A stretch of 57,580 nucleotides of DNA from Nitrospirota bacterium (GTDB lineage: Bacteria > Nitrospirota > Thermodesulfovibrionia > UBA6902), in contig JACQXG010000004.1 in the NCBI GenBank assembly GCA_016208905.1, positions 1 through 57,580 of the forward strand, in the 5' to 3' direction. How positions within the stretch are numbered: position 1 is the stretch's first letter; each line of letters opens with the position of its first letter. The position numbers were made by a program, and so were the translations under genes. The notes below the pieces were generated by a model. That model was not told the DNA's origin, made no database searches, and was given only the letters and a program-made list of their open reading frames with translations. Below, in pieces: positions 4,348-49,583 of this stretch.

Positions 4348-4512
4348 GGGTCAACCTCCTTCTACCGGATAATTACATTATATCGCATAATTTTTATAAG
4401 ACAATACAGAGAATGATAATCAGCGAGTGGGCCTGCGGAGAAGAAGGGAATCCTTTTGCGCGGGGTAGTATGAGGAACATCTTAACATGGAATAGTGTCT
4501 TGAATGTTCTTC

Positions 4513-4546
4513 TTGACAAATCATATAAACAAATGTTTATATGATT
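4513..4546 (+). promoter_or_regulatory. -35 box (TTGACA) followed by a perfect 13-2-13 inverted repeat; ArsR/SmtB-type operator
   Basis: TTGACA at 4513-4518; AATCATATAAACA-AA-TGTTTATATGATT at 4519-4546 directly upstream of the ArsR-family gene. Confidence 0.8.
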
Positions 4547-4576
4547 ATATAGAACAAATTGCAAGAATATCCAAAT

Positions 4577-4996: not shown

Positions 4997-5642
4997 AAAG
5001 AGGACGAGGCTTCAGAAATATACATCGGGTATATTGCCGCTGGTGATAATCGGGGGATGGCTTTATCCGCCGCTCGGTTTTTCACTTCTGCTCTGTATGT
5101 TCGGGGCCGTAGGCATAGCCTTTTACAGAGGAAGGGCCTGGTGCGACTGGATGTGCCCGCGGGGCAGTTTCTATGATCTGTCTCTTGGAAAGCTCAGCCG
5201 GAAAATGCCGATACCGTCTTTTTTTAAGAGCAATAGCTTCAGAACGGTTATTCTGTCCCTGCTTATTACGGTGCTTGGAATTCAGATCTATTATGCCTGG
5301 GGCGATTCATACGGCATAGGCCGCGCATTTGTTTTAGTGTTAACGGTCACTACTACCATAGGTATTGTTTTGGGAGCGGTTTTTAAACCCAGGGCCTGGT
5401 GTCAAATCTGTCCCATGGGGACGCTGGGAAGCTGGCTGTCAGAGGGCAAAAAGCCTCTTTATGTCAGCGAGCATTGCAAAGACTGCAAACTATGCGCGAA
5501 GGTCTGCCCGATGCAGTTGAAACCATACGATAATAAATCAGGTATGATGACTGACGGAGACTGTATTAAATGTTCGTCCTGTGTGGCTGCTTGTCCTGTT
5601 AAAGCGCTTGGCTTTGAAGAAAAGATAAAAAAGGCTGCTTGA
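4977..5642 (+). CDS. Membrane 4Fe-4S binding protein (NapH/MauN/YccM-like polyferredoxin)
   Basis: About four TM segments, two WCxxxCP motifs (WCDWMCPRG, WCQICPMG) and two CxxCxxCxxxCP clusters; overlaps the ArsR gene stop. Confidence 0.85.
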   Translation: MLKQLNKKRTRLQKYTSGILPLVIIGGWLYPPLGFSLLLCMFGAVGIAFYRGRAWCDWMCPRGSFYDLSLGKLSRKMPIPSFFKSNSFRTVILSLLITVLGIQIYYAWGDSYGIGRAFVLVLTVTTTIGIVLGAVFKPRAWCQICPMGTLGSWLSEGKKPLYVSEHCKDCKLCAKVCPMQLKPYDNKSGMMTDGDCIKCSSCVAACPVKALGFEEKIKKAA

Positions 5643-5663
5643 GGAATTCATAACGCTGCAAAA

Positions 5664-5695
5664 TGAACTGCTTCAGCAGAGCTGCAAAGGAATTC
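5664..5695. repeat. Degenerate short palindromic intergenic element between convergent genes
   Basis: TGAACTGCTTCAGCAGAGCTGCAAAGGAATTC with an internal CAGC/GCTG hairpin; recalls IS200/IS605-type end hairpins. Single degenerate copy. Confidence 0.3.
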
Positions 5696-5701
5696 TGTTG
5701 A

Positions 5702-6430
5702 TTATTTGTTGATTTCAGCCAGCAGTTTGCCGGCAATCTGAGGGTCTATGCCTTTTAGTATCTCATATTCCTTTAGGGCTGATTCCCTGTCGTTTAACCG
5801 AAGACTGGAAATTGCAATATTGTAATGAGCGCCAGCAGAATCAGGGGTGCGGTCCAAAACTCTTTTAAACATCTCTATCGCTTCTTTATGTTTGCCCAAT
5901 TCCCCATACGCTATACCCAGATTCAGAAATGTATCTGCATCGAGAGGATTTATTTTAATAGCATGCTCATATGCTTCCGCCGCTTCTTTATGCATTTCCA
6001 GTTTTCCGTATGCGAGGCCCATATTATAATATGCGTCCGGTTCCTTCGGGTTAATACTAATTTCGTTTTTGTAGGCCTCTATCGCTTCTTTATACATTCC
6101 TAATTTCCCATACGCGACACCGAGGTTGTAACTGGAATAAATATCGCGGGGATTGATTTTGATTACATTTTTATACGCCTCTATGGCCTCTTCATACCTG
6201 CCTGATTCATCAAAGGCAACGCCTAGACGATAATAAGCTTCAGTGTTTTTGGGATGCTTTTTTATTTCCTCCTTCAGATGTGCAATATATTTATCGAAGT
6301 CCTTAAGGTGATTCTGAGGATCAGCAGGCAGTATGACAGGGGACAGCAGTATGAGTAATACTAAAAAGCATGGAACTGTTTTATGATTGATAACATCAGA
6401 TATTGCCAAAGGTCTTTTTTTAGCAGGCAC
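5702..6430 (-). CDS. Tetratricopeptide repeat protein with N-terminal hydrophobic segment
   Basis: 34-aa repeats of type AYYNLGxAYGKLGxxKEAIEAYKxxIxINP; hydrophobic stretch FLVLLILLSPVILP. Confidence 0.88.
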   Translation of the reverse strand: MPAKKRPLAISDVINHKTVPCFLVLLILLSPVILPADPQNHLKDFDKYIAHLKEEIKKHPKNTEAYYRLGVAFDESGRYEEAIEAYKNVIKINPRDIYSSYNLGVAYGKLGMYKEAIEAYKNEISINPKEPDAYYNMGLAYGKLEMHKEAAEAYEHAIKINPLDADTFLNLGIAYGELGKHKEAIEMFKRVLDRTPDSAGAHYNIAISSLRLNDRESALKEYEILKGIDPQIAGKLLAEINK

Positions 6431-6515
6431 AAGTCAACTATAACAGAAAACGGGACCAAAAAAATATGCATGATTAATTCTGATTTTTCAGGAGGGTGTT
6501 TCACAGGAAGAAGTT

Positions 6516-6551
6516 AAAAAAAGAGCGCCGGGGAATGTTCCACGGCGCTCT
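6516..6551 (-). terminator. Rho-independent terminator downstream of ppdK
   Basis: GAGCGCCG...CGGCGCTC stem with a 7-A run on + (U-tail on -), about 16 nt after the ppdK stop. Confidence 0.8.
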
Positions 6552-6567
6552 CTCATATATAACTCTG

Positions 6568-9306: not shown

Positions 9307-9451
9307 TTTGATCCTCCAGTATTAGATTTAAAATTATAAATAATTCAGAAAGAGTGTTATTTTACAAAATATTATAAGCTAAATTCAAACATAAAATAAT
9401 TAAGATTAATATAAGTATCACTAATTAGTTCCTGTTGCGAAAATTAATTTT

Positions 9452-9542
9452 TGTCATTTCGGGCCCCGAAATACTGGATAAATTCCGCAAGAAATATTTT
9501 ACCGCTGCAATACCGAAGATTTCTCCAGTTGGTCGAAATGCC
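9452..9542. repeat. REP/MITE-like palindromic element, degenerate copy of the family at 36874-36954
   Basis: TGTCATTTCG...AGAAATAT...AAGATTTCTCCAGTTGGTCGAAATG shares termini and inner arm with the 36874 copy. Confidence 0.65.
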
Positions 9543-9686
9543 TTTTTTTCTGTTAATCCTCAGGGTAGTGCGATTCGAATTGGCCGAACTACATTTATAT
9601 GCCCTTCTGATGGATTTTAATTAAATATTTTTAGCAGTTATGCCGATAGAAATAGAAAATATGTTTTAAAATTGAGGGGTAGTGAA

Positions 9687-10556
9687 ATGCGATTATTTTT
9701 TTCTTTTCTGATTGTTTTTATGATTTCCGGATTTTCATATGCAGCAGAGCTGACTATTGGACTTATTCCGGAACAAAACGTATTTAAGCAAATGAAAAAA
9801 TATAAACCGTTAGGTGATTATATAGAGAAAAAAACAGAACTAAAAATAAAGTTCATTGTCCTTCCCAGATACGGCAATATTATTGAGAGTTTTGAAAAAA
9901 AGCATATGGATGGCGCATTCTGGGGAAGTTTTACAGGTGCAATGGCTATAAAGAAGCTGGGTATTCGGCCTATTGCCAGACCTGTAAATCCTGATGGAAA
10001 TTCAACATATACCGGTTATATATTTGTACATAAATACAGTGTAATAGACAGTGTTGACCGAATGAGGCATTCAATTATTGCTTTTGTAGATAAAGCCACA
10101 ACAGCCGGATATGTTTACCCAGTAGCGTATTTAAGGGAGCATGGAGTAGCCGACATCAAATCTTTTTTCAAAGAATTTTATTTCACCGGCAGCCATGACG
10201 CCGCTATATATGCAGTCCTGAATAAGGAAGCGGAAATCGGTTGTGCCAAAAATACGATATTTGACAAGCTTGCGCTTGAGGACCCCCGCGTGAAAGAAGA
10301 TCTGAAAATAATAGCAACTTCACCGGCTGTGCCTTCTAACGGACTCGCCATGAAAAACAACATTGCTGCCGATATCAAGAAGAGATTACAAAAGGTCCTT
10401 CTTGAAATGGATGGCGACCCTGAGGGGAAGGAAGTCCTTAAAGAATTCGGGGCGATTAAGTTTGTAGAAACAACGGAAAATGATTATGCCCCTGTGTTCG
10501 ATCTTGCAAGAAAAGCCGGGATAGACCTGAAGAATTATAACTACAAGAATGAATAG
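9687..10556 (+). CDS. PhnD/PtxB-like phosphate/phosphite/phosphonate substrate-binding protein (orphan)
   Basis: Signal peptide ending SYA; IGLIPEQ, YTGYIFV, IAFVDKATTAGYVYP, FTGSHDAAIYAV. No permease or ATPase gene adjacent. Confidence 0.85.
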   Translation: MRLFFSFLIVFMISGFSYAAELTIGLIPEQNVFKQMKKYKPLGDYIEKKTELKIKFIVLPRYGNIIESFEKKHMDGAFWGSFTGAMAIKKLGIRPIARPVNPDGNSTYTGYIFVHKYSVIDSVDRMRHSIIAFVDKATTAGYVYPVAYLREHGVADIKSFFKEFYFTGSHDAAIYAVLNKEAEIGCAKNTIFDKLALEDPRVKEDLKIIATSPAVPSNGLAMKNNIAADIKKRLQKVLLEMDGDPEGKEVLKEFGAIKFVETTENDYAPVFDLARKAGIDLKNYNYKNE

Positions 10557-10569
10557 GGATGCAGTTTAA

Positions 10570-13470
10570 ATGAAGCGGAAAATCATTTCATCTTTATTGG
10601 CGATCTTCATATTTTTCAGTATTGGCGCCGCTATCTCTGTGCTTTATATAACCAACACCACAACAAAGCTTGAAAGTATTATTGAACTTCAGGATGTAGA
10701 ACAGCTCAGGAGGTCTCTGGTCATCAATATTCAAACGGTCCAATCCAACCTTTATGCGGTCAATACTCCTTATTCCAGGGAGCTTGATTCCATTGTAGAT
10801 AGTGTATCAAGACTTGAAGAATCGGCAAATGAGTGCACTTCCTGCCATCATTCCCCGCGATTGACCGACCGGATAACAGGTATTCAGTCACTTATAAAAG
10901 ATTATGAAGACAGTTTGAGTTATTACATAACATCAAGCGCCGGTTCGGAAAGAATTGAGAAGCTCAGAAGCGATGCCGTGAATATCGGAAACAGACTTCT
11001 TGGAATGACTGAGGAGATGTCTCATAAAGCAAGCATCTTCCTCGACTCGGAAAGAGAAAGCACCATGCAGGAGATAAATAGTGTAAAGACGATACTTCTT
11101 GGGACTATTTTATTAACTTCTTTTCTGGGTATTATGGTTGCGATAATATTAACGAGGTCTGTCACACGCCCTGTAAATGAGCTTTTAAACGCAACAAGGA
11201 TGATTTCATCAGGGAAACTCGGATCTACAATTACTTACCGGGACAGAACAGAATTTGGAGAACTTGCACAGCATTTCAATACTATGAGTATTGCTATTAA
11301 AGATGGATATGAAAAAATCAGTGAAGAAGTTGCAGAGCGCACGGTGGCGGAAGAGGCGCTTGTTAAGTCTGAAAAATTTCTCAGTACAATATTTGACAGT
11401 ATACGTGATCCTTTCTGCATTTTTGACGATGAATACAGAATAATAAAGATTAATGAGGCGTATGCAGATATAAAGAATAAAGGGGCAGATGAGCTTATCG
11501 GAAAAAAATGTTATGAAGTGATACATGGCAGAAGGACGTATTGTGAAGACTGTATAGTAGCAACAACTTTTAAATCCAAGGACCCATGTGCGAAAGATAA
11601 GCGTGTAATATATAAAGACGGCTCGCCCTTGTGGTCGGAGATTTATACTTATCCTATCTTTAATGAAAAAGGGGACGTATCTTATATTATCGAATATACG
11701 AGGGACATCACCGACCGCAAGAAAACGGAAGAAAAACTGAAAAAAAGCGAGGAGCGTTATGCATTGGCTGCGCGCGGCGCAAATGACGGCCTGTGGGACT
11801 GGGACCTGAAGTCCAACATCGTATTTTATTCTCCCCGATGGAAGTCGCTTCTTGGTTTTGAGGAGGATGAAATTAAAAACAGTCCTGATGAATGGATCGA
11901 GCGGGTCCATCCGGATGAGCGTATTCATGTGGAGATGGAAATAAAGGCGCATATTGACGGCCATGCCCCCAGTTTCAAGAGCGAGCATCGCATGCTGAAC
12001 AAGGATGGGGAATACCGCTGGATGCTCAGCCGAGGGCTTTCTGTTTGTGATGAGGCAGAGAAAGCCCACCGGATGGTTGGTTCGATGACAGACATAACAG
12101 AACGTAAAATGGCTGAGGAGCAGCTTATGTTTGATGCGTTGCATGATTCTCTGACTGGTCTTCCTAACAGGGCGCTTTTTATGGACCGCCTCGGGCACGC
12201 AGTTGACAGGGAAAAGAGGAACAGTCAATACATGTTTGCCGTACTTTTCCTGGACATGGACCGTTTCAAGGTTTTCAATGATAGTATGGGACATACGATA
12301 GGCGATGAACTGCTTATTGCCGTAAGCAAAAGACTTGAAGATAGTCTTCGCCCGGGTGATACAGTCGCACGGTTCGGGGGAGACGAGTTCGCAGTCTTGC
12401 TTGAAGATGTAGCAAGCAGGAGAGAGGCAATATTTATTGCCGAGAGGATACAGGAAAAATTTGCATTGCCGTTCAATCTGAACGGCCAGGAGGTGTTTAC
12501 TTCAGTAAGTATAGGTATTGCTTATAGCACAACCGGATATGAACAGCCGGAAAACCTCCTGCGCAATGCCGACATTGCAATGTACCATGCCAAATCAAAT
12601 AGCGGCAATGCCAAATACAAGGTGTTTGATACAGGGATGTATGCTACTGCAGTTGCCCGTTTGAAACTGGAGAACAACCTGCGGCAGGCAGTTAAGCAGA
12701 ATGAGTTTTGCCTTCACTATCAGCCGATAATATCCATGCAGGATGGGCGAATTGTCTGCATGGAAGCTCTTATAAGGTGGCAGCATCCGACCCGGGGATT
12801 TATACCTCCACTTGAGTTTATTCCGACCGCTGAAGAGACGGGGTTGATAATTGAGATTGGAGAATGGGTGCTTCGTGAAGCGTGCGGTCAGTTGAGTACA
12901 TGGCAGAAGCAGTTCCCTTCGGTATCGCCTTTGTCCGTCAGTGTCAATATATCCAGCAGGCAAATATTACCCAAACTGATTAATCAGATAAAACAGGTAC
13001 TCCGGGATACCGGTCTTAAACCGGAATGTTTAACGCTGGAGATTACCGAAAGCATGATCATGGAAAATGCAAAACTGGTCTCTCCTATGTTAATGCAATT
13101 GAGAGATATGAAGGTCAAAATTCACATTGACGATTTCGGTACCGGGTACTCATCACTGAGTTATTTACATCAATTCCCGGTTGATGTTCTAAAAATTGAT
13201 CGCTCTTTTGTAAAAAGGCTTGGTAAGAATGAAGATAACCTGGAAATTATCAAGGCAATAACAACCCTGGCTCACAGTTTAAACATGGAAGTAATTGCGG
13301 AAGGGGTGGAAACAGAGTATCAACTTGCTCATCTTAGAGCTCTGAAATGCGAATATATGCAGGGATATTTATTTTCGAAACCTCTAAATATTACAGATAT
13401 GGAGGCCTTATTAGGAAAAGGCCGGATAGATATAATTACTTTCTTCACCCGCACCCAGTATATAGGTTAA
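10570..13470 (+). CDS. Membrane diguanylate cyclase/phosphodiesterase: periplasmic CxxCH domain-HAMP-PAS-PAS-GGDEF-EAL
   Basis: Two TM helices flank a domain containing CTSCH; HAMP; two PAS/PAC; HDSLTGLPNR, RPGD I-site, GGDEF; EALIRW, DDFGTGYSS, KIDRSF, EGVE. Confidence 0.93.
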   Translation: MKRKIISSLLAIFIFFSIGAAISVLYITNTTTKLESIIELQDVEQLRRSLVINIQTVQSNLYAVNTPYSRELDSIVDSVSRLEESANECTSCHHSPRLTDRITGIQSLIKDYEDSLSYYITSSAGSERIEKLRSDAVNIGNRLLGMTEEMSHKASIFLDSERESTMQEINSVKTILLGTILLTSFLGIMVAIILTRSVTRPVNELLNATRMISSGKLGSTITYRDRTEFGELAQHFNTMSIAIKDGYEKISEEVAERTVAEEALVKSEKFLSTIFDSIRDPFCIFDDEYRIIKINEAYADIKNKGADELIGKKCYEVIHGRRTYCEDCIVATTFKSKDPCAKDKRVIYKDGSPLWSEIYTYPIFNEKGDVSYIIEYTRDITDRKKTEEKLKKSEERYALAARGANDGLWDWDLKSNIVFYSPRWKSLLGFEEDEIKNSPDEWIERVHPDERIHVEMEIKAHIDGHAPSFKSEHRMLNKDGEYRWMLSRGLSVCDEAEKAHRMVGSMTDITERKMAEEQLMFDALHDSLTGLPNRALFMDRLGHAVDREKRNSQYMFAVLFLDMDRFKVFNDSMGHTIGDELLIAVSKRLEDSLRPGDTVARFGGDEFAVLLEDVASRREAIFIAERIQEKFALPFNLNGQEVFTSVSIGIAYSTTGYEQPENLLRNADIAMYHAKSNSGNAKYKVFDTGMYATAVARLKLENNLRQAVKQNEFCLHYQPIISMQDGRIVCMEALIRWQHPTRGFIPPLEFIPTAEETGLIIEIGEWVLREACGQLSTWQKQFPSVSPLSVSVNISSRQILPKLINQIKQVLRDTGLKPECLTLEITESMIMENAKLVSPMLMQLRDMKVKIHIDDFGTGYSSLSYLHQFPVDVLKIDRSFVKRLGKNEDNLEIIKAITTLAHSLNMEVIAEGVETEYQLAHLRALKCEYMQGYLFSKPLNITDMEALLGKGRIDIITFFTRTQYIG

Positions 13471-34171: not shown

Positions 34172-36862
34172 ATGAAAAATATTTCCCTTCATATAGACGG
34201 TAAATACGTTCAGACCCCGGGAGGAAGCACCATCCTGGCTGCGGCAAAACAGAACGGCATCCATATCCCCACGCTTTGTTATCATCCGAGGACCAGACAG
34301 GCCGGCAAATGCAGGCTTTGTGTTGTAGAAGTTAAAGGTCTGCCCGGACTTCAGGTCTCCTGTTCCATTCAGGCGCAGGACGGCATGGTTGTACTCACAC
34401 ATACCGAACGGATCATCGAGACAAGAAAGATGATTGTGGAGCTGTACCTTTCCAACGGTAAGCACAACTGCATGTCGTGCGAGGCCTGCGGCTCATGTGA
34501 ACTTCAGGCCGTTGCTTATCATCTTGGTATAGAGAAATCTGATTTCCCTGCAGTGGATAAGGACATGCCGGTTGACATGTCCTGCCCCATGATCATCAGG
34601 GACATGAATAAGTGCATTCAATGTTACCGCTGCATCATTGCGTGCAATGATATCGCGGTCAACGAAGTGCTTGATATGGGGTATCGCGGCAGTAAAATGA
34701 CAGTCGTTTGCGATACAGATAAGCCAATGGGGAAATCATCATGCGTGGTGTGCGGCGAGTGCGTGCAATTATGTCCAACAGGGGCCTTGACAGAGAAAAA
34801 GGCCATTGGGAAGGCAAGGCATTGGGAGACGGAAAAGGTCAGGACCACATGCCCGTACTGCGGGGTCGGGTGTCAGCTCCAGCTTCACGTCAAGGACAAT
34901 GAAATAGTAAAGGTCACTGGAGCTGAGGACGTGGAACCGAACTACGGCTCTCTCTGTATAAAAGGCAGGTTCGGATACGATTTTGTCCATTCACCTCTGC
35001 GCCTTAAGTCACCCCTCTTGCGAAAGGACGGGAGACTCGAAGAAGTAAGCTGGGAAGAGGCGCTGAATTTTACTGCAAAAAGATTTTCGGAAATAAAGCA
35101 GGCGCACGGCCCGGATTCAATAGTGGGCATCGGGTGCGCAAGGTCTACGAATGAGAGCGCTTATGTGATGATGAAATTCATGCGCGCGGTAATCGGCACG
35201 AACAATATCGACCATTGCGCCCGGACGTGACACGCGCCTACGGTGGCCGGGCTGGCCTCCACACTCGGAGCAGGGGCGATGACGAATTCCATACGTGAGA
35301 TTGAAAACGCGCCCGTCATCTTTGTGATTGGCTCTAACACCACGGAAGCTCATCCCGTAATCGCGAACATCATGAAAAGGGCTGTGAAGAAGGGAAGCAG
35401 GCTGATTGTAGCAGACCCCAGAAAGATCAGCCTGACCCGCTGGGCGGCCAGGCATTTTCAGCACAAAGTCGGCTCTGACATTGCGCTTCTCAATGCGGTC
35501 ATGCATGAGATCATAAAAAACGACCGGCATGATAAGAAGTTTATTAATAACTATACCGAAGGGTTTGAAAAACTCATGGAGACTGTAAGTGAATACACCC
35601 CCGCATACGCTTCGGGAATATGCGGACTGCCGGCGGATGAGATAAGGGAGCTTGCAAAGATCCTCGGCGAGGCTGAAAAGGTCGCGCTATTTTATACCCT
35701 CGGCATTACGGAACATGTTACGGGCACTGATAATGTGAGGACGTGCGCAAATCTTCAAATGCTGCTCGGTAACATAGGGAAGGAAAGCTCAGGCGTCAAC
35801 CCTCTCAGGGGACAGAACAATGTCCAGGGCGCCTGTGACATGGGTGCGCTGCCTGACGTTTACACAGACTATCAGAAGGCGGCTTATCCTGCAGTGAGAA
35901 AAAAATTTGCGAAGGCGTGGGGCGTGAATTCATTGCCGGAACAGGAAGGGACAAAAATCCCTGCCATGTTCGACGGCATCATTCATGGCAATGTAAAGGC
36001 GCTATATCTGGCAGGTGAGAATATCGTTATGTCAGAGCCGAACCAGGCGCATACAGTTAAGGCACTCGAAAAACTCGAATTGCTCATAGTGCAGGACATT
36101 TTTATAAATGAGACTGCGGAACACGCAGACGTTGTTTTTCCTGCATCGTGTTTTGCAGAAAAGGACGGCACATTTACCAATACCGAGAGGCGCGTGCAGC
36201 GAGTAAGAAAGGCAGTGAAACCTCCGGGCCTGGCAATGGACGACTGGTGGATTACATGCGAACTGTCAAGAAGGATGGGCTTTGAGATGGGCTATACGTC
36301 TGCGGAACAGATATGGGAAGAGATACGCTCGTTAACACCCTCGATGTCCGGGATCACGTATAAGAGGATTGAACATCAAGGTATCCAGTGGCCCTGTACT
36401 GACGAGGAGCACAACGGGACGTGCTATCTTTATTGCAATAATGTATTCCCCTGCGGCAAGGCCACATTCCAGCCTGCGCACTGGAAGCCGCCTGCAGAGT
36501 GTCCTGATAATGAATATCCAATCGTGCTCACAACAGGGAGACGCCTCTATCAGTATCACACCGGGACACAGACAAGACTGTCTGCCGGATTTGATGAAAT
36601 TTGTCCTGAAGAGCTGATTGAAGTAAATCCCAAAGATGCAGAAAAACTGGACATCAAAGATGGTGATTATATTTTTGCCGTGTCCCGCAGGGGCAGGGTT
36701 AAGGCAAAGGCATGGGTAACTGACCGGGTATTAACCGGGGTCTGTTTCATGACCTTCCACTTCAGGGAGGCGTGTGCAAATGTCATCACCAATGATGTCT
36801 TTGACCCTGTTACCGGCACCGCTGAATACAAGGCATGCGCGGTCCGCCTGGAGAAGATATGA
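34172..36862 (+). CDS. fdhF: Selenocysteine-containing cytoplasmic formate dehydrogenase alpha subunit (FdhF/FdsA type, 896 aa, Sec at residue 353)
   Basis: ORFs 34172-35230 and 35243-36862 are in one frame, joined by DHCART-TGA-HAPTVAGL; N-terminal 2Fe-2S, HxCxxCxxxxxC, two 4Fe-4S, CPYCGVGC; PLRGQNNVQGACD; no Tat signal. Confidence 0.95.
35231..35262 (+). promoter_or_regulatory. Bacterial SECIS-like stem-loop following the Sec codon
   Basis: GG-T-GGCCG-GGC-TGGCC-T-CC hairpin with a G-rich apical loop, starting 11 nt after TGA, in the same register as the fdhF SECIS. Confidence 0.75.
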
Positions 36863-42124: not shown

Positions 42125-43102
42125 CTAAGGCTTCCAGAGGTACAGAAATTCCACTCCGGAAAAGGGAGTGGAACTGTCTGAATGATTATTGAGAAGCCCC
42201 ATTAATGAGGGGCTGTTTGCCGGGTATGCTGAATAAATAGTAACCGGGTACTCTCCGGAACGATAATACGTAATGATTTGAGCATGTTCTATGCCGAGAG
42301 ATTTCTTCATTCTCTCTATAGCATCGTCCAAATAGCCGATATGGTCAATCAGCTTTGAATCCAGTGCCTGATCTGCAGTATATATGCGTCCATCGGAAAG
42401 GACCTCTATTTCTTTTCTGGACAATAAATCTTTTCTATTTTCAAATACCGCATCTATAAAACGGGACTGTAAACTATCGATAATTGATTGAAGGATTTTT
42501 TTCTCTTCAGGGGTATTTGCCCTGAAGGGCGAAAAGAGGTCTTTTTTGTCCCCGGACTTAACGGTCTCATCTTCCACGCCGATTTTTGTCAGAAGTCCCT
42601 CGATATTAAACTTCATGGCGATTACGCCGATGCTGCCGGTGATGGCGCTGGGATGTGAGCTGATCTCGTCAGCGGCAGCTGCTATATAATATCCGCCGGA
42701 AGTGCCGGTCCCCATTATGCAGGCATGCACCGGAACACGCGTCTTTTTCTTGAAATTCATTAACTCGTGATAGATAATGTCTGATGCCGTAACAGTCCCG
42801 CCCGGAGAATTTATTTTTACAATAACACCCCAAATATTTTTGTCTTTTTCAGCTTTCTGGAGGGCCTCTTTTACATGCGCAACAAGCGAAGGCTCTTTCA
42901 CCAGGCTTAAAGCTCCTCCCCTCTCATTTTCGGATATAAATCCCGAAACATCAAGCAGGAGTATCTTCGGGCGTCCTTCACCTTCTATTATATATTCCTG
43001 TAATGGTGAGGGTGGCGGCACAAGTGACATATTTACAAATGCGCACCCTCCCAGAAAAAAGAAAAGAATCGAAATTGACCATTTCATATATCTGTTAAGC
43101 AT
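42125..43102 (-). CDS. sppA: Signal peptide peptidase SppA (S49), lipoprotein-type short form
   Basis: LGGC lipobox; INSPGGTVTASD, TSGGYYIA, TGSIGV, KSGDKKD, DGRIYTADQA. Confidence 0.92.
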   Translation of the reverse strand: MLNRYMKWSISILFFFLGGCAFVNMSLVPPPSPLQEYIIEGEGRPKILLLDVSGFISENERGGALSLVKEPSLVAHVKEALQKAEKDKNIWGVIVKINSPGGTVTASDIIYHELMNFKKKTRVPVHACIMGTGTSGGYYIAAAADEISSHPSAITGSIGVIAMKFNIEGLLTKIGVEDETVKSGDKKDLFSPFRANTPEEKKILQSIIDSLQSRFIDAVFENRKDLLSRKEIEVLSDGRIYTADQALDSKLIDHIGYLDDAIERMKKSLGIEHAQIITYYRSGEYPVTIYSAYPANSPSLMGLLNNHSDSSTPFSGVEFLYLWKP

Positions 43103-43112
43103 ACCTGATATC

Positions 43113-44288
43113 CTACCTCATAACCTGGTTCATCTCAAATATCGGCAGGAGGACTGCCACTACAATAAATCCGACCACCAGGCCCATTACTAAAATCAAT
43201 ACCGGTTCAAGAAGGCTTATCACTCTCTGAAGCTTTCTATCAAACTCTGATTCATAAGATGCAGCTGTTTTCTGTAACACCTCCGGCAGTTTTCCAGTTT
43301 GCTCTCCGGTAGATATTATCTGTAAAAGAGTGGGAGGAAATCCTTTAAGACTTGTTGAAAGTTTTGCACCCTGAGATACCAGGTTCTGGGCAGACATGAT
43401 TTTGTTTTCCAGGACAACGTTGCCTGTGACCTTGGAGGTCAACTGCATGGCCTTTAATATCGGCAGCCCTCCGGAGAGGAGAAAACCCATTGTCATTGAA
43501 AACCGCAGCATGTAGAGTCCCATTAAAATACCGGAAGGGTCTTTCAGCAGTATTGAATCAATTAAGACCTTTTTTGTCCGTTTAATTTTATTGAATGAAA
43601 TCACAGCGCCTGCAGCCAGGGCCAGCAGCAGCCACCAGAAATTCTTTAACGCCGTACTGATCCAGATGAGCACCAGGGTAATAAAGGGCAGGGTGGCTGC
43701 GGTTTCCTCGAATATTTTTGTTATCTTGGGAATAACGAAGGTAAACAGAAAAGCCACAATGGCTATGCTGACGCAGGCCATGAACGCCGGATATATGAGG
43801 GCTGTTTTGATTTTATTTTTAATATTGATTTCGCTTTCAAGAAAATCAGCGAGTTTAATAAGGACGTCCGGAAGTCTGCCGCTGCTTTCTCCGGCCGCGA
43901 TCATGCCTGTATAAAAATCCGGGAATATTGAAGGATGGGCCTGCATTGCGCGCGCGAATGATGAACCTCCGGCAAGCCTGTCCTTAAGGTCTGTCAATAT
44001 ATTTCTCCACTCACCCTTTTGCTCTGAAGATAACGCGCTCAGGGTATCTATCAAAGTGACCCCGGAGGAAAGCAGGATTGAAAGTCTTCTTGTTATGCCG
44101 GCGAGCGCTGACGGAGAGAATTTATTGAATAAGGATTTTTTCCCTGAAAGGCCCTCTTCTGTGATATCTTTCGGAAAGATGCCTTTTGATTTTATTTTTA
44201 AGGCGGCATCTTTCTGTCCGTCGGCTTCGATTACTCCTTCGGCTGCAGACCCTTTCCTGTCATATCCATGATATTTGAAAACAGGCAT
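43113..44288 (-). CDS. gspF: Type II secretion inner membrane platform protein
   Basis: MPVFKYHG, TRRLSILLSSG, AGESSGRL, ALIYP, GEQTGKL, LLEPVLIL...AVLLPI. Confidence 0.92.
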   Translation of the reverse strand: MPVFKYHGYDRKGSAAEGVIEADGQKDAALKIKSKGIFPKDITEEGLSGKKSLFNKFSPSALAGITRRLSILLSSGVTLIDTLSALSSEQKGEWRNILTDLKDRLAGGSSFARAMQAHPSIFPDFYTGMIAAGESSGRLPDVLIKLADFLESEINIKNKIKTALIYPAFMACVSIAIVAFLFTFVIPKITKIFEETAATLPFITLVLIWISTALKNFWWLLLALAAGAVISFNKIKRTKKVLIDSILLKDPSGILMGLYMLRFSMTMGFLLSGGLPILKAMQLTSKVTGNVVLENKIMSAQNLVSQGAKLSTSLKGFPPTLLQIISTGEQTGKLPEVLQKTAASYESEFDRKLQRVISLLEPVLILVMGLVVGFIVVAVLLPIFEMNQVMR

Positions 44289-44291
44289 ATC

Positions 44292-45809
44292 TCATCCTTC
44301 CACGTCCCGTAACGTGACCCTTATGACTTCTTCTATTGTAGTAATGCCCTTTAGAATTTTATCGATTGCATTTTTTTGAAGGGACTTAAAACCGGCCCTG
44401 ACGGCTATGGCTTTTATTGCCTGTGCATCTTTTCTTTCAGCAATCGCTGTCCTTACCTCCGGAGTAATCTCCAGCAGTTCGTAGATTCCCGTCCTGCCGA
44501 GGTATCCCTTACCCATGCATTTATCACAACCTTTCCCTTGATAAAGCCTGGACGGCGGAGGGTCAAGATCGAGATAAGACAATTCCTGCTTTGTCGGTGT
44601 ATATGGTTCCCTGCAGTGCGGACAGATCACTCTTACAAGCCTCTGTGCAAGGATGCATACAAGTGATGATGCCACGAGGAACGGCTCTATTCCCATGTCA
44701 ATAAGTCTTGTTGTGGCGCTTGGAGCGTCATTCGTATGAAGTGTGCTGAGAACCAGATGTCCGGTAAGCGATGCATGCACGGCAATCTCCGCAGTCTCAA
44801 GGTCTCTTATTTCACCGACCATCATGATGTCCGGGTCCTGTCGTAAGATTGATCTCAGTCCTGCCGCAAACGTAAGACCTATTTTGGGATTTATATGCAT
44901 TTGTCCTATGCCGGCGAGCTGATACTCGACAGGGTCTTCAACTGTGATGATATTTCTGTCTTCGGTGTTAAGCCTGATAAGAGACGCGTAAAGAGTAGTG
45001 GTCTTGCCGGACCCAGTGGGGCCGGTAACAAGTATGATGCCGTTATGTCTTGAAAGCGCGTTTTTCAGCGAAAGCAATAGTGAATCCGCCAGTCCGAGCA
45101 TTTCAAGGCTCAGGACGCCGGACTGCCTGTCGAGCAGTCTCAGGACCGCCCTTTCCCCGATCATTGTAGGTATTATGGACACTCTTATGTCGAAGTTCTT
45201 CCCGCCGACAAGCAGCTGTATTCTGCCGTCCTGAGGGAGTCTTTTCTCAGCAATATCAAGACCCGCGATTATCTTTATCCTTGATATCAGGGCATCGTGA
45301 ATAATTTTGGGAGGGCTCAGGACCTTGCTCAAAATTCCGTCTACCCTGAACCTTACGTCAATGCCTTTTTCGTATGGTTCTATATGTATATCGCTTGCTT
45401 TTTCTTTTACCGCCTCCATAAGGAGGGCATTCAGCAGACGGATAATCGGGGCCTCTTCTGTAAGCTCGAGCAAATCCGTCGGTGATTCAAATTCCGTGGC
45501 TATCATGGAAAGGTCTTCACCTTTAATGTCACCCATTACATCGTTTACACTGCTTGTCTGGCTGTATATGCGGTTGATCGCATCTATAATGAGTTTTGCG
45601 TCAGCCTGGACAGGGTGGGGTTTAAGATTAAGGGCCCTTGCCAGGTCTCTGAGCGCAAAGACCCCGCGGTTGTCTGCAACGGCGCCTATAAGTTCATTGT
45701 CCTGTCTTCTCAGCGGCAGAAAGACATTGCCTTTAGCATAGGTGAGAGATATTTTCTCAAGCAGTGAAAATTCTATGTCATCATCTTTAATATCGTTTAC
45801 GGTTTCCAT
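44292..45809 (-). CDS. gspE: Type II secretion ATPase
   Basis: ASDIHIEP, DIAEKRLPQDGR, TGPTGSGKTTTLY, TVEDPVE, LRQDPD, TGHLVLSTLHTN, CPHC/CDKC. Confidence 0.95.
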   Translation of the reverse strand: METVNDIKDDDIEFSLLEKISLTYAKGNVFLPLRRQDNELIGAVADNRGVFALRDLARALNLKPHPVQADAKLIIDAINRIYSQTSSVNDVMGDIKGEDLSMIATEFESPTDLLELTEEAPIIRLLNALLMEAVKEKASDIHIEPYEKGIDVRFRVDGILSKVLSPPKIIHDALISRIKIIAGLDIAEKRLPQDGRIQLLVGGKNFDIRVSIIPTMIGERAVLRLLDRQSGVLSLEMLGLADSLLLSLKNALSRHNGIILVTGPTGSGKTTTLYASLIRLNTEDRNIITVEDPVEYQLAGIGQMHINPKIGLTFAAGLRSILRQDPDIMMVGEIRDLETAEIAVHASLTGHLVLSTLHTNDAPSATTRLIDMGIEPFLVASSLVCILAQRLVRVICPHCREPYTPTKQELSYLDLDPPPSRLYQGKGCDKCMGKGYLGRTGIYELLEITPEVRTAIAERKDAQAIKAIAVRAGFKSLQKNAIDKILKGITTIEEVIRVTLRDVEG

Positions 45810-45992
45810 ACATGCGGCTCAATACGACTTATTCTGATTTATTGACTCCAAAAATGCATTTAACATAATGCAGATGTTGGAAAATTATTTATTTTTCGAT
45901 TCCTTAAACGCATTTTTAATCAAGGTTAGGATGCATATTTTTATTCAAAGCCTTATGCATAATTTGATAATAAGTCTATCGAGTTAAACAAA

Positions 45993-48584
45993 TTATTTTT
46001 CAATGTCTGCTTTATTTGGGTTAACTAAAAAGGGTCTCAGATTAAACTTTTTTCTTAACTTATTTAATAACAGGGCGTCATTCTTTTTGCTCATTGTACC
46101 AGGAATACGCACCTTATTGAAGCTGTTATCTTCAACGATGTAAATATCCGGATAGTGAGGTCTCAATAGCTCCAGCGTCTCCATGGCATATTTAATATTT
46201 ATCCATGCCCCGACCTGGATGTAATACTGGCTGCTCTTTTTATTAACTGCTTCTGACGCATTTGTTTTGTCCGTCAATTGATTTTGCTGCGGCTCATTGA
46301 CTTTCTCTGCAAGCGCGTCGCCTTCTGCCCTGGCATCTGCAACAGGGACAGCCTGATTATTGTCAATTACTTTAAGAGAGGAAGGGGTTTGTTCCAGCAG
46401 TATGCTGCCGGGGTCTTCACTTTTGTTATCAGGAGGTATTTTTTTTTTATCAATGCCCGGGGGAGGCAATGAGCTGTCCTCATTATTCAAGTCTGCGGAA
46501 TTACCGATATCAACGGCAGGAGCAGCCTGTTCAGCATCAGTGACCTTAAGCGTTTCGGTATTTTCTTCATGTAATAAACTGTCGGGTTTATTTAACTCTA
46601 TGTCAGGCGCCGGCTGTTTTTTATCAGTATCTTCAGCAGGTACATCCAGTTTGACTTTGTAATTCGGCTCAGCGTAAAGAACTTCCGGGACCGAAGAAAA
46701 CTCATTAATGGCATCTTCAACCTCCTGGCCGGATTTAAGTTTTATGTGGTAGACATTTATATCATCAAAATGTCTGATAACGCTGGCTTTTTTTTGTGAT
46801 ATTATGAGTAAAGCCATATCTTCCGGAACATCTTCTTTGAATTTTACGAGCAGCTCGCCCTGCCTGTAAAACTTTTCTCTTGTTACAAAATCCTTATGTT
46901 TCTCCTGCGTCATTTTTGCGATCTGAGGCGCTTCTTTAATTATATGCGGTGAGAGAAATACCAGGAGATTTGTCTTATTTTTTGATACACTTTTGAATTT
47001 AAAAAGCCATCCAAGAACGGGAATGTCTCCCAGAATGGGCACCTTGAACACGTCTTCCTGTTCCTGTTCCTGCATAAGTCCGCCGATGACAACGGTAAGC
47101 CCGTCCTTTACTACAACGGATGTTTTTGTTGAACGCTTGGTGGTGCTGGGACCGATAGTTGTGAGAATTACATCAGAGGCTTTTTCGACTGACGAGATTT
47201 CCTGAAAGATATCGAGTTTAATGTAATCTCCCTCTGATATCTGGGGAGTTATCTTTAATTTTATGCCGACGTCCGTCCTCTGAATAGAATTAAGCACTGT
47301 GCTGGTTGTGGTCACGTCACGCTCTCTCTGTGATATAAAGGGCACATTTTCGCCGACGAGGATCTCAGCTTCCTGATTATCGGAAGTAAGTATTTGGGGG
47401 GTGGAAAGGACGTTTATCGCGCGCCTGAATTCGCTCAGGCTGAAAAGCGCCGCAAAACCCGGAGATGTTAGGGTTTGTGAACTGACTGTTCCATCTGTGC
47501 CGACTGATGTTACAGGGATGTCGAGAAAGCTCCCCATCCCGCCAACTGAAAAACCGGAAAGACCGTTAATGATATTCAGAACGGTGTCTGTTCCAATATT
47601 TCCAACTCCGCCTACTGCCACAGGTTCACCTTTGTGAGTTGCCATGGCCCTCCACTTTGACCCGAGATCTCTCAGCATATCTATTCTTGCTTCAACGATC
47701 ATTGCCTCAACAAATACCTGTTTTCTCTTCTTATCAAGTGTCTTGATTACCTGAACAATGTTCTCATAATCAGATGGAGGCGCAATAATTACAAGTGAAT
47801 TGGTTGCCTTGTCCGGTGTGACATTTAATACCGGAACTGCTGAAGCATCTCCGCCTTTTTGGGCCATGCGGCCATTTTTTACGGCTGTCTGTAAATTTTT
47901 TATTATTCCCTGCAAAACCTCCGACAAATCTGTTGCATCGGCATGTTCCAGGAAATAGACATGAATACTGGCCTCTTCTTCCCTTATCGAAGGTTTATCA
48001 ATCAGACTGAGGATGGACATGATTTTATTGATAGTTACGGCAGAATCAACTGCGAGCAGCATATTGTGAGGACCAAAAGAAGACAGGTGCCCGTCTTTTG
48101 AAATGACGGGACGGATAAACTGTAACGCCTCTTCTGCTTTGATATTGTCAACAGGGATAAGCTTTGTAATATAACCTTCATTGACAGGAAGTATTGCGTT
48201 AGTAGAGATTATTCCTTCCTGCTTTGCAAGGGAAGAGGGGATGATTTTATAAGTATTTGGCCCTGAAGGAATTATAGTGAAGCCTTTAAGACTGAGTACT
48301 GATGTGAAGAGATTAAAAGACTCCTCTACAGTCAGCTTTGTCGGGGCTATTATAGTGATAGTTCCCTTTATTCTTTCATCAAACAGGAAATTGTCGCCCG
48401 TAATTTCGCTGATAAACTTGATTAATGTAGAGATTTCAACATCCACAAAATTGAAGGCAATTCTGGGTTCGGCCTGTCCCTCTGATTGCCCCTGATTATT
48501 ATTGCCTGCTATTGACAGAGAAGAGAATACGGTCATCACAAAGATGATAGAATACAACACAATAGACAGTTTAATAATTTTCAT
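45993..48584 (-). CDS. gspD: Type II secretion secretin GspD with C-terminal propeptide-like and SPOR extensions
   Basis: FNFVDVEI (N0), LEHADA...DKATNSLVI (N3), QVFVEAMIVE, NVLSTPQILTSDNQEA, DVGIKLKITPQI, KVPILGDIPVLGWLF; about 300 extra C-terminal residues. Confidence 0.92.
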   Translation of the reverse strand: MKIIKLSIVLYSIIFVMTVFSSLSIAGNNNQGQSEGQAEPRIAFNFVDVEISTLIKFISEITGDNFLFDERIKGTITIIAPTKLTVEESFNLFTSVLSLKGFTIIPSGPNTYKIIPSSLAKQEGIISTNAILPVNEGYITKLIPVDNIKAEEALQFIRPVISKDGHLSSFGPHNMLLAVDSAVTINKIMSILSLIDKPSIREEEASIHVYFLEHADATDLSEVLQGIIKNLQTAVKNGRMAQKGGDASAVPVLNVTPDKATNSLVIIAPPSDYENIVQVIKTLDKKRKQVFVEAMIVEARIDMLRDLGSKWRAMATHKGEPVAVGGVGNIGTDTVLNIINGLSGFSVGGMGSFLDIPVTSVGTDGTVSSQTLTSPGFAALFSLSEFRRAINVLSTPQILTSDNQEAEILVGENVPFISQRERDVTTTSTVLNSIQRTDVGIKLKITPQISEGDYIKLDIFQEISSVEKASDVILTTIGPSTTKRSTKTSVVVKDGLTVVIGGLMQEQEQEDVFKVPILGDIPVLGWLFKFKSVSKNKTNLLVFLSPHIIKEAPQIAKMTQEKHKDFVTREKFYRQGELLVKFKEDVPEDMALLIISQKKASVIRHFDDINVYHIKLKSGQEVEDAINEFSSVPEVLYAEPNYKVKLDVPAEDTDKKQPAPDIELNKPDSLLHEENTETLKVTDAEQAAPAVDIGNSADLNNEDSSLPPPGIDKKKIPPDNKSEDPGSILLEQTPSSLKVIDNNQAVPVADARAEGDALAEKVNEPQQNQLTDKTNASEAVNKKSSQYYIQVGAWINIKYAMETLELLRPHYPDIYIVEDNSFNKVRIPGTMSKKNDALLLNKLRKKFNLRPFLVNPNKADIEK

Positions 48585-48627
48585 GAATATTTCCTTGCCT
48601 GATGCTTACAGCAAATGATATAAGGGC

Positions 48628-48662
48628 TTATCAATTATCAATTATAGAGTGTCAATTGTCAA
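48628..48662. repeat. Degenerate 7-bp tandem repeat (5 units) between gspC and gspD
   Basis: TTATCAA TTATCAA TTATAGA GTGTCAA TTGTCAA. Confidence 0.55.
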
Positions 48663-48680
48663 ATATTAAACATTAAATCA

Positions 48681-49583
48681 CTATCTTATTTCATAAGTCA
48701 TGGACGAGTTCTTCCCGTCTCTGATTATATCAAGATTTACCCTGTTCATACCCCTAAGTGCGGACATTGCCTGAATTGCAACTTCAGGGTTTGATATTTC
48801 AAGTCCGTTTATCCTTAACAGGGTATCTCCGTTTACTAGTCCCAGACTGTGATAAAGTCCGTCTGGAACGACTTCGCTGATTTTAAATCCTTCCTGCCTG
48901 CCGTTTACGAAATTAGGCAAAAGCCGCGCGTCCGTCAATATCTGTTCCGGATTCTCAAGTGATTTCTGGACCCTTCTGCGGTCAAGGATATATTGTTTAT
49001 CACTGACCTTTCTGGCAAATGACGCTTCGGATGCAGCAGCTTGACTGTCCTGATGCTGCTCTGCCCCGGCGCTGGTTTTTTCAAGTGGCATTGTAAGTGT
49101 ATAAGTAATGGAATCCTGCCTTATTTCAACAGATGAACTGCTAATTTTATTTAATATGCCATAATTATAAACTGCTTCCTTATACGCAAAAATTTCCTGT
49201 CCTATGGTCTTGGATTTGTCCTGAATAATTGCGTAACTGAGTTTGTCCGGGCCCACAACTGTGCCTACGAGAAGCAAGTCCGATAGAGAGCCGTATGGTT
49301 TTTCCGAATCCTGCTTCACTGCAACAGGATGAAGTTTCATGGGGCGGCCGAAGGGGTTCTTTTCCAGGATAACAGAATACTGCATGATGTCTTCTTTCAT
49401 TTTATTGGTTAATGAGTTATTTGCAGAGACATCATGAGGAACTTCTGTTTTTGAGAAAGAAGTACCGATGATATTCCGGATCAGGAGGAGGATTGAGAAT
49501 AGAATAAGCACAGCAAGAATGTAGTTAAAAAAACGGAAAGTTTTTAATGAATTTTCGAGCATTTTATCTAGTAGATTAAACAA
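48681..49583 (-). CDS. gspC: Type II secretion protein GspC with PDZ domain
   Basis: N-terminal TM, NPFG, LLLVGTVVG..YAII (HR domain), ARLLP...GFKI...GLVNGDTLLRING (PDZ); start uncertain. Confidence 0.88.
   Translation of the reverse strand: MFNLLDKMLENSLKTFRFFNYILAVLILFSILLLIRNIIGTSFSKTEVPHDVSANNSLTNKMKEDIMQYSVILEKNPFGRPMKLHPVAVKQDSEKPYGSLSDLLLVGTVVGPDKLSYAIIQDKSKTIGQEIFAYKEAVYNYGILNKISSSSVEIRQDSITYTLTMPLEKTSAGAEQHQDSQAAASEASFARKVSDKQYILDRRRVQKSLENPEQILTDARLLPNFVNGRQEGFKISEVVPDGLYHSLGLVNGDTLLRINGLEISNPEVAIQAMSALRGMNRVNLDIIRDGKNSSMTYEIR

Follow-up and report, generated by a model that had tools for sequence, protein, structure and literature searches.

The stretch of DNA analysed here, referred to as the window, comprises 57,580 nucleotides from a Nitrospirota bacterium and contains part of a type II secretion system (T2SS). 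Genes for GspC, GspE and GspF adjoin gspD, and the gene of an S49/SppA-type peptidase lies at the far side of gspF (Table 1). The window has none of the remaining genes of such a cluster, gspG-N, and searches of its 86%-complete genome did not find them either.

Table 1. Genes of the T2SS locus in the window and domains of its secretin GspD (positions are those of the window; residues are those of GspD).
Feature	Position	Strand	Basis
gspC-like gene (T2SSC + PDZ)	48681..49583	-	PF11356, E 1.1e-7; PDZ, E 5.9e-4
gspD, T2SS secretin, 863 aa (P0001)	45993..48584	-	single ORF; TIGR02517; Pfam N0, Secretin_N, Secretin
N0 domain, residues 44-114	48243..48455	-	PF21305, E 4e-23
Secretin core, residues 389-550	46935..47420	-	PF00263, E 2.5e-49; aligns to 6i1x, 5wq7, 5zdh
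alpha11-counterpart helix, residues 553-569	46878..46928	-	AF2 models; phmmer alignments to solved GspDs
Subtilase-prodomain-like domain, C-terminal type, residues 571-642	46659..46874	-	PF22148; AF2; structural matches
Disordered low-complexity linker, residues 644-785	46230..46655	-	AF2 pLDDT 25-35, secondary structure none
SPOR-like domain (probable), residues 788-854	46023..46223	-	PF05036, E 0.0032, 18.2 bits; AF2 fold
gspE ATPase	44292..45809	-	PF00437, E 3.1e-143
gspF platform protein	43113..44288	-	PF00482, E 3.5e-61
S49/SppA-type peptidase, lipobox-like N-terminus	42125..43102	-	PF01343, E 6.7e-43

GspD scores 473.5 bits against the NCBIfam model TIGR02517 (type_II_gspD), above the curated equivalog cut-off of 351.35, and its Pfam domains, with PF21305 followed by PF03958 in two stretches and then by PF00263, are in the order that fits a T2SS secretin. 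An earlier note on this DNA, made from the letters alone, had proposed that the secretin is fused to a subtilisin-propeptide-like domain. The fusion is confirmed: PF22148 (Fervidolysin_NPro-like) is matched at residues 571-641, window positions 46662-46874, with an E-value of 1.2e-13 and 51.7 bits against a cut-off of 21, which is where the domain had been placed. Pfam finds no S8 catalytic domain after it in GspD, again as proposed. The domain does share one uninterrupted frame with the core, but it does not follow the core directly, as had been thought, since a helix intervenes.

The domain is modelled by AF2 with a beta-alpha-beta-beta-alpha-beta core at a pLDDT of 90-97, a fold of the I9/prodomain type, and the structures that it matches best are S8 propeptides, which is the outcome that the earlier note had anticipated for a structure search. 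In Foldseek against the PDB these are 1r6v, which comes top (E 4e-3), 3whi, 1scj_B and 3cnq_P, all at E-values of about 4e-3 to 7e-3; as the search gave no match at E <= 1e-3, the assignment rests on the ranking together with the VIA-align Z-scores and Pfam. VIA-align is headed by 3bgo_P (Z 9.5, rmsd 2.0 Å over 70 residues), 3whi_B (Z 9.5) and 9fid_D (Z 9.1). Ferredoxin-like folds of a generic kind come next at Z 7-8.5, a gap of only 1-2 Z units. A profile of 32 such domains matches the fervidolysin prodomain (1r6v_A) at E 1.5e-4 and subtilisin prosegments at E 0.06-0.25. Residues E639, P640 and N641 are invariant and form the EPN motif that is common to S8 prodomains. The GspD domain is genuinely homologous to the prodomains of S8 enzymes, with the same fold, and it is not a prodomain itself, because a secretin core precedes it and Peptidase_S8 is absent from the protein. 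Family PF22148 is what it has in common with the N-terminal propeptides of S8 enzymes, including those of fervidolysin (1R6V) and the prosegments of subtilisin BPN'/E, and with free I9 inhibitors such as POIA1. With the S8 propeptides it further shares the fold (Z 8.3-9.5, rmsd 1.8-2.4 Å over 63-70 residues), the conserved GELLVKFK and AEPNY motifs and, by prediction in the case of GspD, a tail that lies in the substrate cleft of an S8 enzyme. Unlike them, it is free of a protease, lies towards the C-terminus of an outer-membrane channel, and falls in a separate clade, which the C-terminal copies of some S8s share.

In known secretins the C-terminal end of the S-domain binds the pilotin, an outer-membrane lipoprotein (PMC6532946). 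The prodomain-like domain had been described as standing in place of the S-domain, which holds for the pilotin-binding end, alpha12, and not for alpha11, whose homologue remains. The helix after the core is present in both AF2 models, is crossed by the phmmer alignments to ExeD (6i1x) and GspD (5wq7), and is kept in orthologues that do not have the prodomain-like domain. Alignments to the solved GspDs stop at around residue 574, beyond which there is the prodomain-like fold and no C-terminal helix alpha12. The protein thus has an alpha11-homologous helix at the same place as the T2SS secretins that are served by PulS/OutS or AspS/EpsS pilotins, but differs from them in that alpha12 is replaced by a folded domain of 70 residues and in that the candidate partner would be a lipoprotein protease rather than a pilotin. 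A search confined to PulS/OutS pilotins (PF09691) found none in any of five genomes, with E. coli as a positive control, which for this family agrees with the earlier expectation that pilotin genes would be missing. The solved GspD structures, as presented in PMC6532946, have the S-domain on the outside of the barrel and so off the path of the cargo; the geometry inferred from them does not support the earlier picture of a ring of prodomains around the channel that captures cargo.

In the window's protein the domain is followed by a linker, which is missing from short-form relatives, and by a SPOR-like tail. The tail's PF05036 score is under the Pfam cut-off of 21, whereas the fold elements modelled by AF2 (beta-alpha-beta-beta-alpha-beta, pLDDT 84-90), the matches that 15 of 37 relatives give at E <= 0.01, the best at 2.2e-8, and a score of 34 bits for the protein P0050 speak for the SPOR tail that the earlier note had named, and its identity as such is probable. 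Class-wide, 22 of 28 secretins end no more than 12 residues past the prodomain-like domain, roughly as far as a processed propeptide tail would reach, and more than 100 residues follow it in 19 of 38 close relatives, including the window. Given that SPOR is matched in only those 15 relatives and that most secretins of the class stop after the domain, the tail is a lineage-specific addition. With linker and SPOR-like domain added in the window's lineage, the prodomain-like domain would have become internal and no longer be at a free C-terminus. SPOR domains are peptidoglycan-binding modules, and the tail probably fastens the channel to that polymer. In this it would resemble the wall anchors of other secretins, such as the accessory proteins GspB/OutB and ExeAB and the AMIN domains of PilQ (PMC9239104). 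Unlike GspB/OutB and ExeAB, the putative wall-binding module, with its SPOR score below the Pfam cut-off, is here found within the secretin's own C-terminus. A secretin labelled as belonging to the Spirochaetales has a SPOR-like tail and no prodomain.

The fusion is conserved in related genomes. The prodomain-like domain is borne by the secretin in 38 of the 38 protein clusters found, PF22148 is matched in all 37 aligned relatives, and fused secretins are present at 28 of 29 loci from a sample of the phylum. The closest relative of the window's domain is 92% identical. Thirty secretin-borne copies form a single clade with a support of 100/96, and their nearest kin are second, C-terminal copies on S8 proteases themselves; a second tree included two of the four C-terminal S8 copies and left out those of P0062 and P0081. 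The fusion has a single origin and persists throughout the class Thermodesulfovibrionia as well as in a few MAGs labelled Desulfobacterota. Recent and repeated acquisition of the domain from adjoining S8 genes was rejected on the ground that the secretin copies are monophyletic. Two GspD relatives do not have the domain (G022 at 55% identity and G126 at 30%), and both of their genomes are without an S8 match. Apparent full-length matches in three records labelled Myxococcota (L112, L113, L124) and in L083 were discarded, the prodomain being absent from them and L083 containing a stop. Literature searches on secretins with propeptides or subtilisins, the T2SS of Nitrospirota, PF22148, the S-domain, pilotins and SPOR, and the CFI-box returned nothing on this fusion, and full-text searches found nothing on PF22148 either.

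The T2SS clusters of the relatives are complete, running from gspC to gspN. A gspC-like gene lies upstream of gspD in 20 of 20 fetched loci, and gspG-N follow in 13 of them. Because the relatives carry an ordinary T2SS, what we describe is an altered secretin within a known type of system: of the undescribed T2SS variant suggested earlier, the undescribed and conserved secretin stands, and the new system does not. The downstream sppA had also been counted as part of the variant. Its cluster is a singleton when the window is compared with the 20 fetched loci, 21 in all, and it was therefore rejected as a partner or component.

Several observations link the fused secretin to S8 subtilases in the relatives, as suspected from the start. 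S8 genes are found within or flanking the T2SS cluster at 6 of 20 loci. They are present in 30 of 34 fused genomes versus 5 of 20 genomes of the class without the domain, counts that overstate the association, as the genomes are related and the groups are defined by the feature itself. Among further fused genomes, 9 of 13 have an S8 gene and four do not, with at least one of these genomes duplicating a member of the first 34. A lipobox is carried by six of the eight cluster-encoded S8s; many lipoprotein subtilases end in a CFI-box-CTERM sorting domain. All eight cluster-encoded S8s have a fervidolysin-type prodomain sequence at their own N-terminus, and Pfam confirmed PF22148 in the three of them that were scanned and in six S8s of a representative library, so that the prodomain-less S8 proteases which the earlier note looked for in the same genomes were not seen. 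The window's own genome, an assembly of 107 contigs that is 86% complete, has no match to Peptidase_S8, no CFI-box protein was found in it, and the only match to PF22148 is that of gspD. Four fused genomes that are 99-100% complete are likewise without an S8 gene (G294, G040, G229 and G247), and in the three whose domain sequences were read (G294, G040 and G229) the motif is intact.

For G199, the secretin domain was modelled in complex with the catalytic part of the S8 whose gene neighbours the T2SS of that genome. The predicted complex scores 0.91, against 0.18 for the best of three controls, where the mark used for such predictions is reached by 58 of 80 solved complexes and by 2 of 110 mismatched pairs. 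The runs share at least 81% of their contacts, with a pLDDT for the partner of at least 84. The predicted interface takes in partner residues 80-91, up to the C-terminus, and places the tail of the secretin in the active-site cleft of the S8, where it also includes S8 positions 53, 109 and 285, the invariant D, H and S of the DTG, HGT and GTS motifs. The binding mode is the canonical one of propeptides. A complex prediction of the kind that the earlier note had called for is thus favourable in mode and score, but it resembles solved propeptide-subtilisin complexes, may derive from them, and shows likeness and not binding.

The reading that we tentatively favour, and to which we would give slightly less than an even chance, is that the C-terminal module of GspD is a propeptide mimic that docks S8 proteases on the periplasmic outer face of the secretin. 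The S8 would first remove its own N-terminal prodomain, after which the secretin domain, with its beta-sheet face and with the short tail past EPNY, would fill the prodomain-binding surface and substrate cleft of the enzyme. Up to 15 proteases per channel could in this way be held inactive at the outer membrane, possibly for safe-keeping before export. Docking is supported by the homology and fold of the domain, its position after the alpha11-like helix, its conservation and its single origin. It is also supported by the S8 genes in or beside T2SS clusters, their co-occurrence with the fusion, the S8-less genomes of the domain-less relatives G022 and G126, the short tails of the 22 class-wide secretins, the C-terminal S8 copies as nearest kin, and the predicted complex. 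Against it stand the absence of S8 from the window's genome and from four near-complete fused genomes, and the fact that the cluster S8s keep their own prodomain, so that no unmet need for a trans-acting one is visible. In addition, the long extensions in half of the 38 close relatives mean that a free propeptide-like C-terminus is not universal, and the S-domain position outside the barrel (PMC6532946) would be off the cargo path. A narrower form, in which this C-terminal type of prodomain is a receptor specialised for lipoprotein subtilases and the inactive, docked cargo itself serves as pilotin, we consider unlikely; we know of no T2SS with such an arrangement.

The same intact domains in genomes without an S8 gene would be explained if the prodomain fold had been co-opted once as a brace in place of alpha12 and pilotin, independent of any protease, an account that is possible though on balance doubtful. 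Such a brace would stabilise or target the secretin via a neighbouring subunit, the outer membrane, BAM or the cell wall, and later SPOR-type additions would extend the same envelope-anchoring role. It is consistent with the lack of PulS/OutS pilotins in the five genomes searched, with the age of the secretin clade and its separation from the N-terminal prodomains that adjacent S8 genes encode, with SPOR-like tails having been gained at the same C-terminus in several lineages (among them the prodomain-less Spirochaetales-labelled secretin), and with the location at the S-domain end, which in other secretins serves pilotin binding and assembly (PMC6532946). However, it does not explain the invariance of a motif common to S8 prodomains, the closest kin on S8 C-termini or the S8 genes within T2SS clusters, and the G022 orthologue works without the domain, which is therefore non-essential for this type of secretin. 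The proposal of the earlier note, that a ring of prodomains acts as a chaperone or folding catalyst in trans for secreted prodomain-less subtilases, has a precedent in ORF2, the external chaperone of the Aeromonas sobria serine protease ASP. Like the GspD domain by prediction, ORF2 is propeptide-like, with a C-terminal region that binds around the catalytic site of an S8, in that case a propeptide-deficient one (PMC5638518); 3wqb_B appears at Foldseek rank 50, and the predicted binding mode would be compatible. But ORF2 acts as a separate protein on a protease without a propeptide (PMC5638518), whereas the GspD module is fused to a secretin and every S8 inspected, eight from clusters and six from the representative library, has its own prodomain, which makes this very improbable. 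For the window's genome alone, the domain could be an evolutionary leftover without a current partner, at a locus reduced to gspCDEF. The missing gspG-N, the failure to find GspK and GspL orthologues in this genome with the queries used, and the joint absence of S8 and CFI-box proteins are in keeping with this. The genes may, though, lie in unassembled parts of the 107-contig assembly, as G232, from the organism's family, has its gspK-L block on a separate contig, and the domain sequence is fully intact and close to that of its nearest relative; we judge a leftover to be distinctly unlikely.

A secretin with a homologue of protease propeptides at its S-domain is an undescribed and conserved variant of the T2SS secretin. 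The finding brings together three poorly understood topics, namely the T2SS of Nitrospirota, lipoprotein subtilases and the CFI-box-CTERM sorting signal, and the last of these, as yet uncharacterised, would be tied to type II secretion if the docked cargo does act as pilotin. If the module is only structural, it would still provide a new answer to how secretins without a pilotin are stabilised. If it binds subtilases, then it would be the first inhibitor or receptor specific to a cargo to be built into a secretion channel, and a new use of the propeptide fold.

The T2SS secretin gene of the window, gspD, is a single open frame (table below), and positions 46650-46875, in which the earlier note had seen a subtilisin-propeptide-like domain continuing the secretin frame, correspond to residues 570-645 of the protein, so that this observation proved accurate. 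With a profile of 32 such prodomain-like domains (alignment A1), the match to 1r6v_A, the prodomain of fervidolysin, has E 1.5e-4, and those to subtilisin prosegments have E 0.06-0.25. In an AF2 model from the same alignment, a helix of low confidence precedes a domain of beta-alpha-beta-beta-alpha-beta topology (pLDDT 90-97), for which Foldseek ranks fervidolysin, pro-subtilisin E and subtilisin prosegments at the top, with E values of roughly 4e-3 to 9e-3, each short of 1e-3; the free prosegments superpose with a TM to target of 0.76-0.78 and an rmsd of 1.8-2.6 A. Among 48,161 chains compared with VIA-align, the best are 3bgo_P and 3whi_B (Z 9.5 each) and the PC1/3 prodomain 9fid_D (Z 9.1), while the I9 inhibitor POIA1 reaches Z 8.3 and unrelated ferredoxin-like folds (ACT, RRM) rank next at Z 7-8.5. 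The modelled fold alone would be ambiguous as evidence for an S8-prodomain identity, S8 being the subtilisin-type proteases, but because Pfam and profile matches add to it the homology to S8 prodomains is secure.

Features of the window's secretin locus and S8 families of related T2SS loci
Feature	Position	Strand	Remarks
gspD, T2SS secretin	45993-48584	-	863 aa; single ORF; TIGR02517, 473.5 bits against a cut-off of 351 (NCBIfam)
GspD, N0	residues 44-114		Pfam
GspD, Secretin_N	two stretches		Pfam
GspD, secretin core	residues 389-550		Pfam, E 2.5e-49
GspD, Fervidolysin_NPro-like PF22148	residues 571-641		Pfam, E 1.2e-13, 51.7 bits against a cut-off of 21
GspD, SPOR match	residues 784-854		Pfam, sub-threshold, 18.2 bits against a cut-off of 21
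S49/SppA-type peptidase	42125-43102	-	directly after gspF; lipobox-like N-terminus (LGGC)
S8 family f15	L036-L039		T2SS loci
S8 family f11	L040-L041		T2SS loci
Genomes of L036-L041			G199, G235, G292, G286, G184, G166

The full-length GspD model, built on a 37-row alignment and with a mean pLDDT of only 55.5, shows a helix (residues 553-569), the prodomain-like domain (573-642, pLDDT 83-90), a disordered segment (644-785, pLDDT 25-35) and another beta-alpha-beta-beta-alpha-beta unit (788-854, pLDDT 84-90) that fits SPOR. One published account (PMC6532946) divides the secretin S-domain into alpha11, in contact with the adjacent subunit, and alpha12, the site of pilotin binding. When residues 380-575 are compared by phmmer with the solved secretins 6i1x, 5wq7, 5zdh and 5wq8, the alignments span the helix and end at about 565-574. 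Since they end after the alpha11-like helix, the prodomain-like module stands in place of alpha12 only, and the S-domain is otherwise not replaced.

The window locus (42125-49583, all minus strand) runs gspC-like (T2SSC and PDZ), gspD, gspE, gspF and an S49/SppA-type peptidase gene by Pfam, and its T2SS genes end after gspF, with gspC, D, E and F only. Thirteen of 20 relatives' loci have a gspG-N block 3' of gspF that the window's locus lacks, and the queries used found no GspK or GspL orthologues in the window's genome, which is 86% complete; as another member of the same family (G232) carries gspK and gspL on a separate contig, missing assembly is a live explanation. Of the 21 loci compared (20 fetched and the window), none but the window's has the S49/SppA-type gene, which is therefore outside the conserved system, so that the earlier note's inclusion of the downstream sppA in its variant is not supported. 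A second, paralogous T2SS-like cluster, with a secretin 27% identical and gspE, F, G, I and K, lies on another contig of the same genome (G000, C60, about 4088-11974). Elsewhere in the window (34172-36862, plus strand), two neighbouring molybdopterin-oxidoreductase ORFs share one frame and are parted by the TGA codon at 35228-35230; if this codon encodes selenocysteine, the junction reads NIDHCARTUHAPTVAGL, which looks like the site of selenocysteine in the alpha subunit of formate dehydrogenases.

Residues 551-660, used as the query of a word-indexed search, brought up 38 clusters, every one of them Secretin plus PF22148 and, where named, assigned to Nitrospirota or Thermodesulfovibrionia. 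Within a phylum sample the domain was matched in 72 of 301 genomes, and it follows the secretin core and helix in frame in 28 of the 29 best loci besides the window, the exception being a protease locus (L034, genome G169). There, a stand-alone 144-aa ORF with a leader and prodomain-like domain (L034:1300-1731, plus strand) lies directly upstream of an S8 protease with its own prodomain (L034:1779-3227, plus strand, in a 2336-aa frame), and frames of 130-170 aa bearing the domain recur in further Nitrospirota genomes of the sample. A one-genome-per-species scan added fused forms labelled Syntrophales (L065, L066, L070) and Desulfobacteraceae (L069), two of them with a SPOR-like tail. With a combined profile of secretin end and domain, only 21 proteins among 1.84 billion representatives reach E <= 1e-30; the architecture is rare and clade-restricted.

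The protein ends within 12 residues of the domain in 22 of 28 fused secretins; among 38 closer relatives, the part that follows the conserved EPNY motif is 15 residues long or less in 12, 16-100 in seven and more than 100 in 19, and SPOR is matched in 15 of 37 relatives. By these counts the short form is the usual one class-wide, and linker and SPOR were added within the window's neighbourhood of the tree. A Spirochaetales-labelled secretin (L107:3-2678, plus strand) has a long linker and SPOR-like C-terminal domain without the prodomain-like domain, so such a tail has been gained more than once at secretin C-termini.

In a maximum-likelihood tree all 30 secretin-borne copies split from nine protease-side copies (support 100/96), and this grouping on one side of a branch indicates one ancient fusion event. 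One GspD, in G211 (L010:649-3288, minus strand), has the prodomain-like domain twice in tandem, and both copies fall in the secretin clade. Four S8 proteases (P0062, P0081, P0130, P0153) are among the best non-secretin profile matches, and carry, besides a normal N-terminal prodomain, a CFI-box-CTERM domain and beyond it, at the very C-terminus, a further PF22148 copy that stops 7-11 residues past EPN; the CFI-box motif is readable in all four, and NCBIfam confirms the domain in P0062 and P0130, the two scanned. The tree took in only two of these four C-terminal copies; as both nest inside the secretin clade (support 97/98), the secretin domain belongs to a C-terminal PF22148 subtype shared with some subtilases. 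A further protein of the representative library, P0176 (942 aa), is nearly all PF22148-like repeats, with 10 profile-matched stretches and PF22148 alone found by Pfam.

When the ORFs of the 20 fetched loci were clustered into families, gspC-gspD were present in all, and 13 continue with gspE, gspF and then gspG, minor pseudopilins, gspK, gspL and two unnamed genes, an ordinary T2SS. In six of the 20, S8 genes are located between gspF and gspG, immediately upstream of gspC or downstream of the whole T2SS set. Of eight cluster-encoded S8s, six have a lipobox and two (L040, L041) end in CFI-box-CTERM; an N-terminal prodomain is readable in all eight, and the three scanned with Pfam have their own PF22148 prodomain, Peptidase_S8 and fn3. 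One 882-aa frame (L040:13178-15826, plus strand) joins S8, fn3, CFI-box-CTERM and a complete GspG pseudopilin with no internal stop; a genuine read-through or fusion would explain it, or else a fault in the assembly. The earlier note had expected prodomain-less S8 clients; every S8 inspected bears its own prodomain, which makes it very improbable that the secretin domain is a chaperone in trans for such proteases.

Peptidase_S8 is found in 30 of 34 fused genomes, in 9 of 13 further ones (at least one duplicating a genome of the 34) and in 5 of 20 class genomes listed as without the domain. All of these 20 have secretins, and only two hold a relative of the window's GspD (G022, 55% identity; G126, 30%); neither relative has the domain, the protein ending after its alpha11-like helix, and neither genome has S8. 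For CFI-box-CTERM the count is 16 of 35 fused genomes and 1 of the 20 class genomes that have no fused secretin, and at least 17 of 34 such matches share an open frame with an S8 match. Because the genomes are related and the groups are defined by the feature itself, the association is suggestive only.

For the domain (last 91 residues) of the G199 secretin paired with the catalytic domain of the S8 whose gene lies upstream of its gspC, a complex was predicted with a score of 0.91 in three runs, against 0.18 for the best of three controls; 58 of 80 solved complexes attain this mark, as do 2 of 110 mismatched pairs, counts that are rough because the alignments were our own. The runs share at least 81% of their contacts, with a partner pLDDT of at least 84. 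The predicted interface comprises, on the secretin side, the domain strands and residues 80-91 (EPNY and the tail to the C-terminus) and, on the S8 side, positions 53, 109 and 285 among others, the invariant D, H and S of DTG, HGT and GTS, so that the predicted binding is in the canonical propeptide mode. Since propeptide-S8 complexes are already solved, the result shows likeness to, and compatibility with, propeptide binding rather than binding of that copy.

Against a protease role we count the window's own genome (2.19 Mb, 107 contigs, 86% complete), in which S8 and CFI-box have no match and the GspD copy is the single PF22148 match, the end of its T2SS locus after gspF, and the S49 gene found in no other locus compared. 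The same holds for the prodomain that every S8 inspected already has and for four fused genomes, 99-100% complete, without S8; all three domain sequences read from those four have an intact motif. An assembly or anchoring module independent of proteases is accordingly an alternative to be kept in mind, if a rather unlikely one. That the domain is a relic in this particular genome seems improbable. In three MAGs without S8, with the labels Syntrophales or Desulfobacteraceae, the EPNY motif has degenerated to EPV, which points towards a protease link, though in a small number of genomes. The domain may be a docking site for subtilases that mimics their propeptide, a tentative reading to which we give somewhat less than an even chance. 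The interpretation given in the earlier note thus has partial support: its new secretion system is not borne out, and what stands is a conserved T2SS secretin variant with a prodomain-like domain, apparently undescribed in the literature searched.
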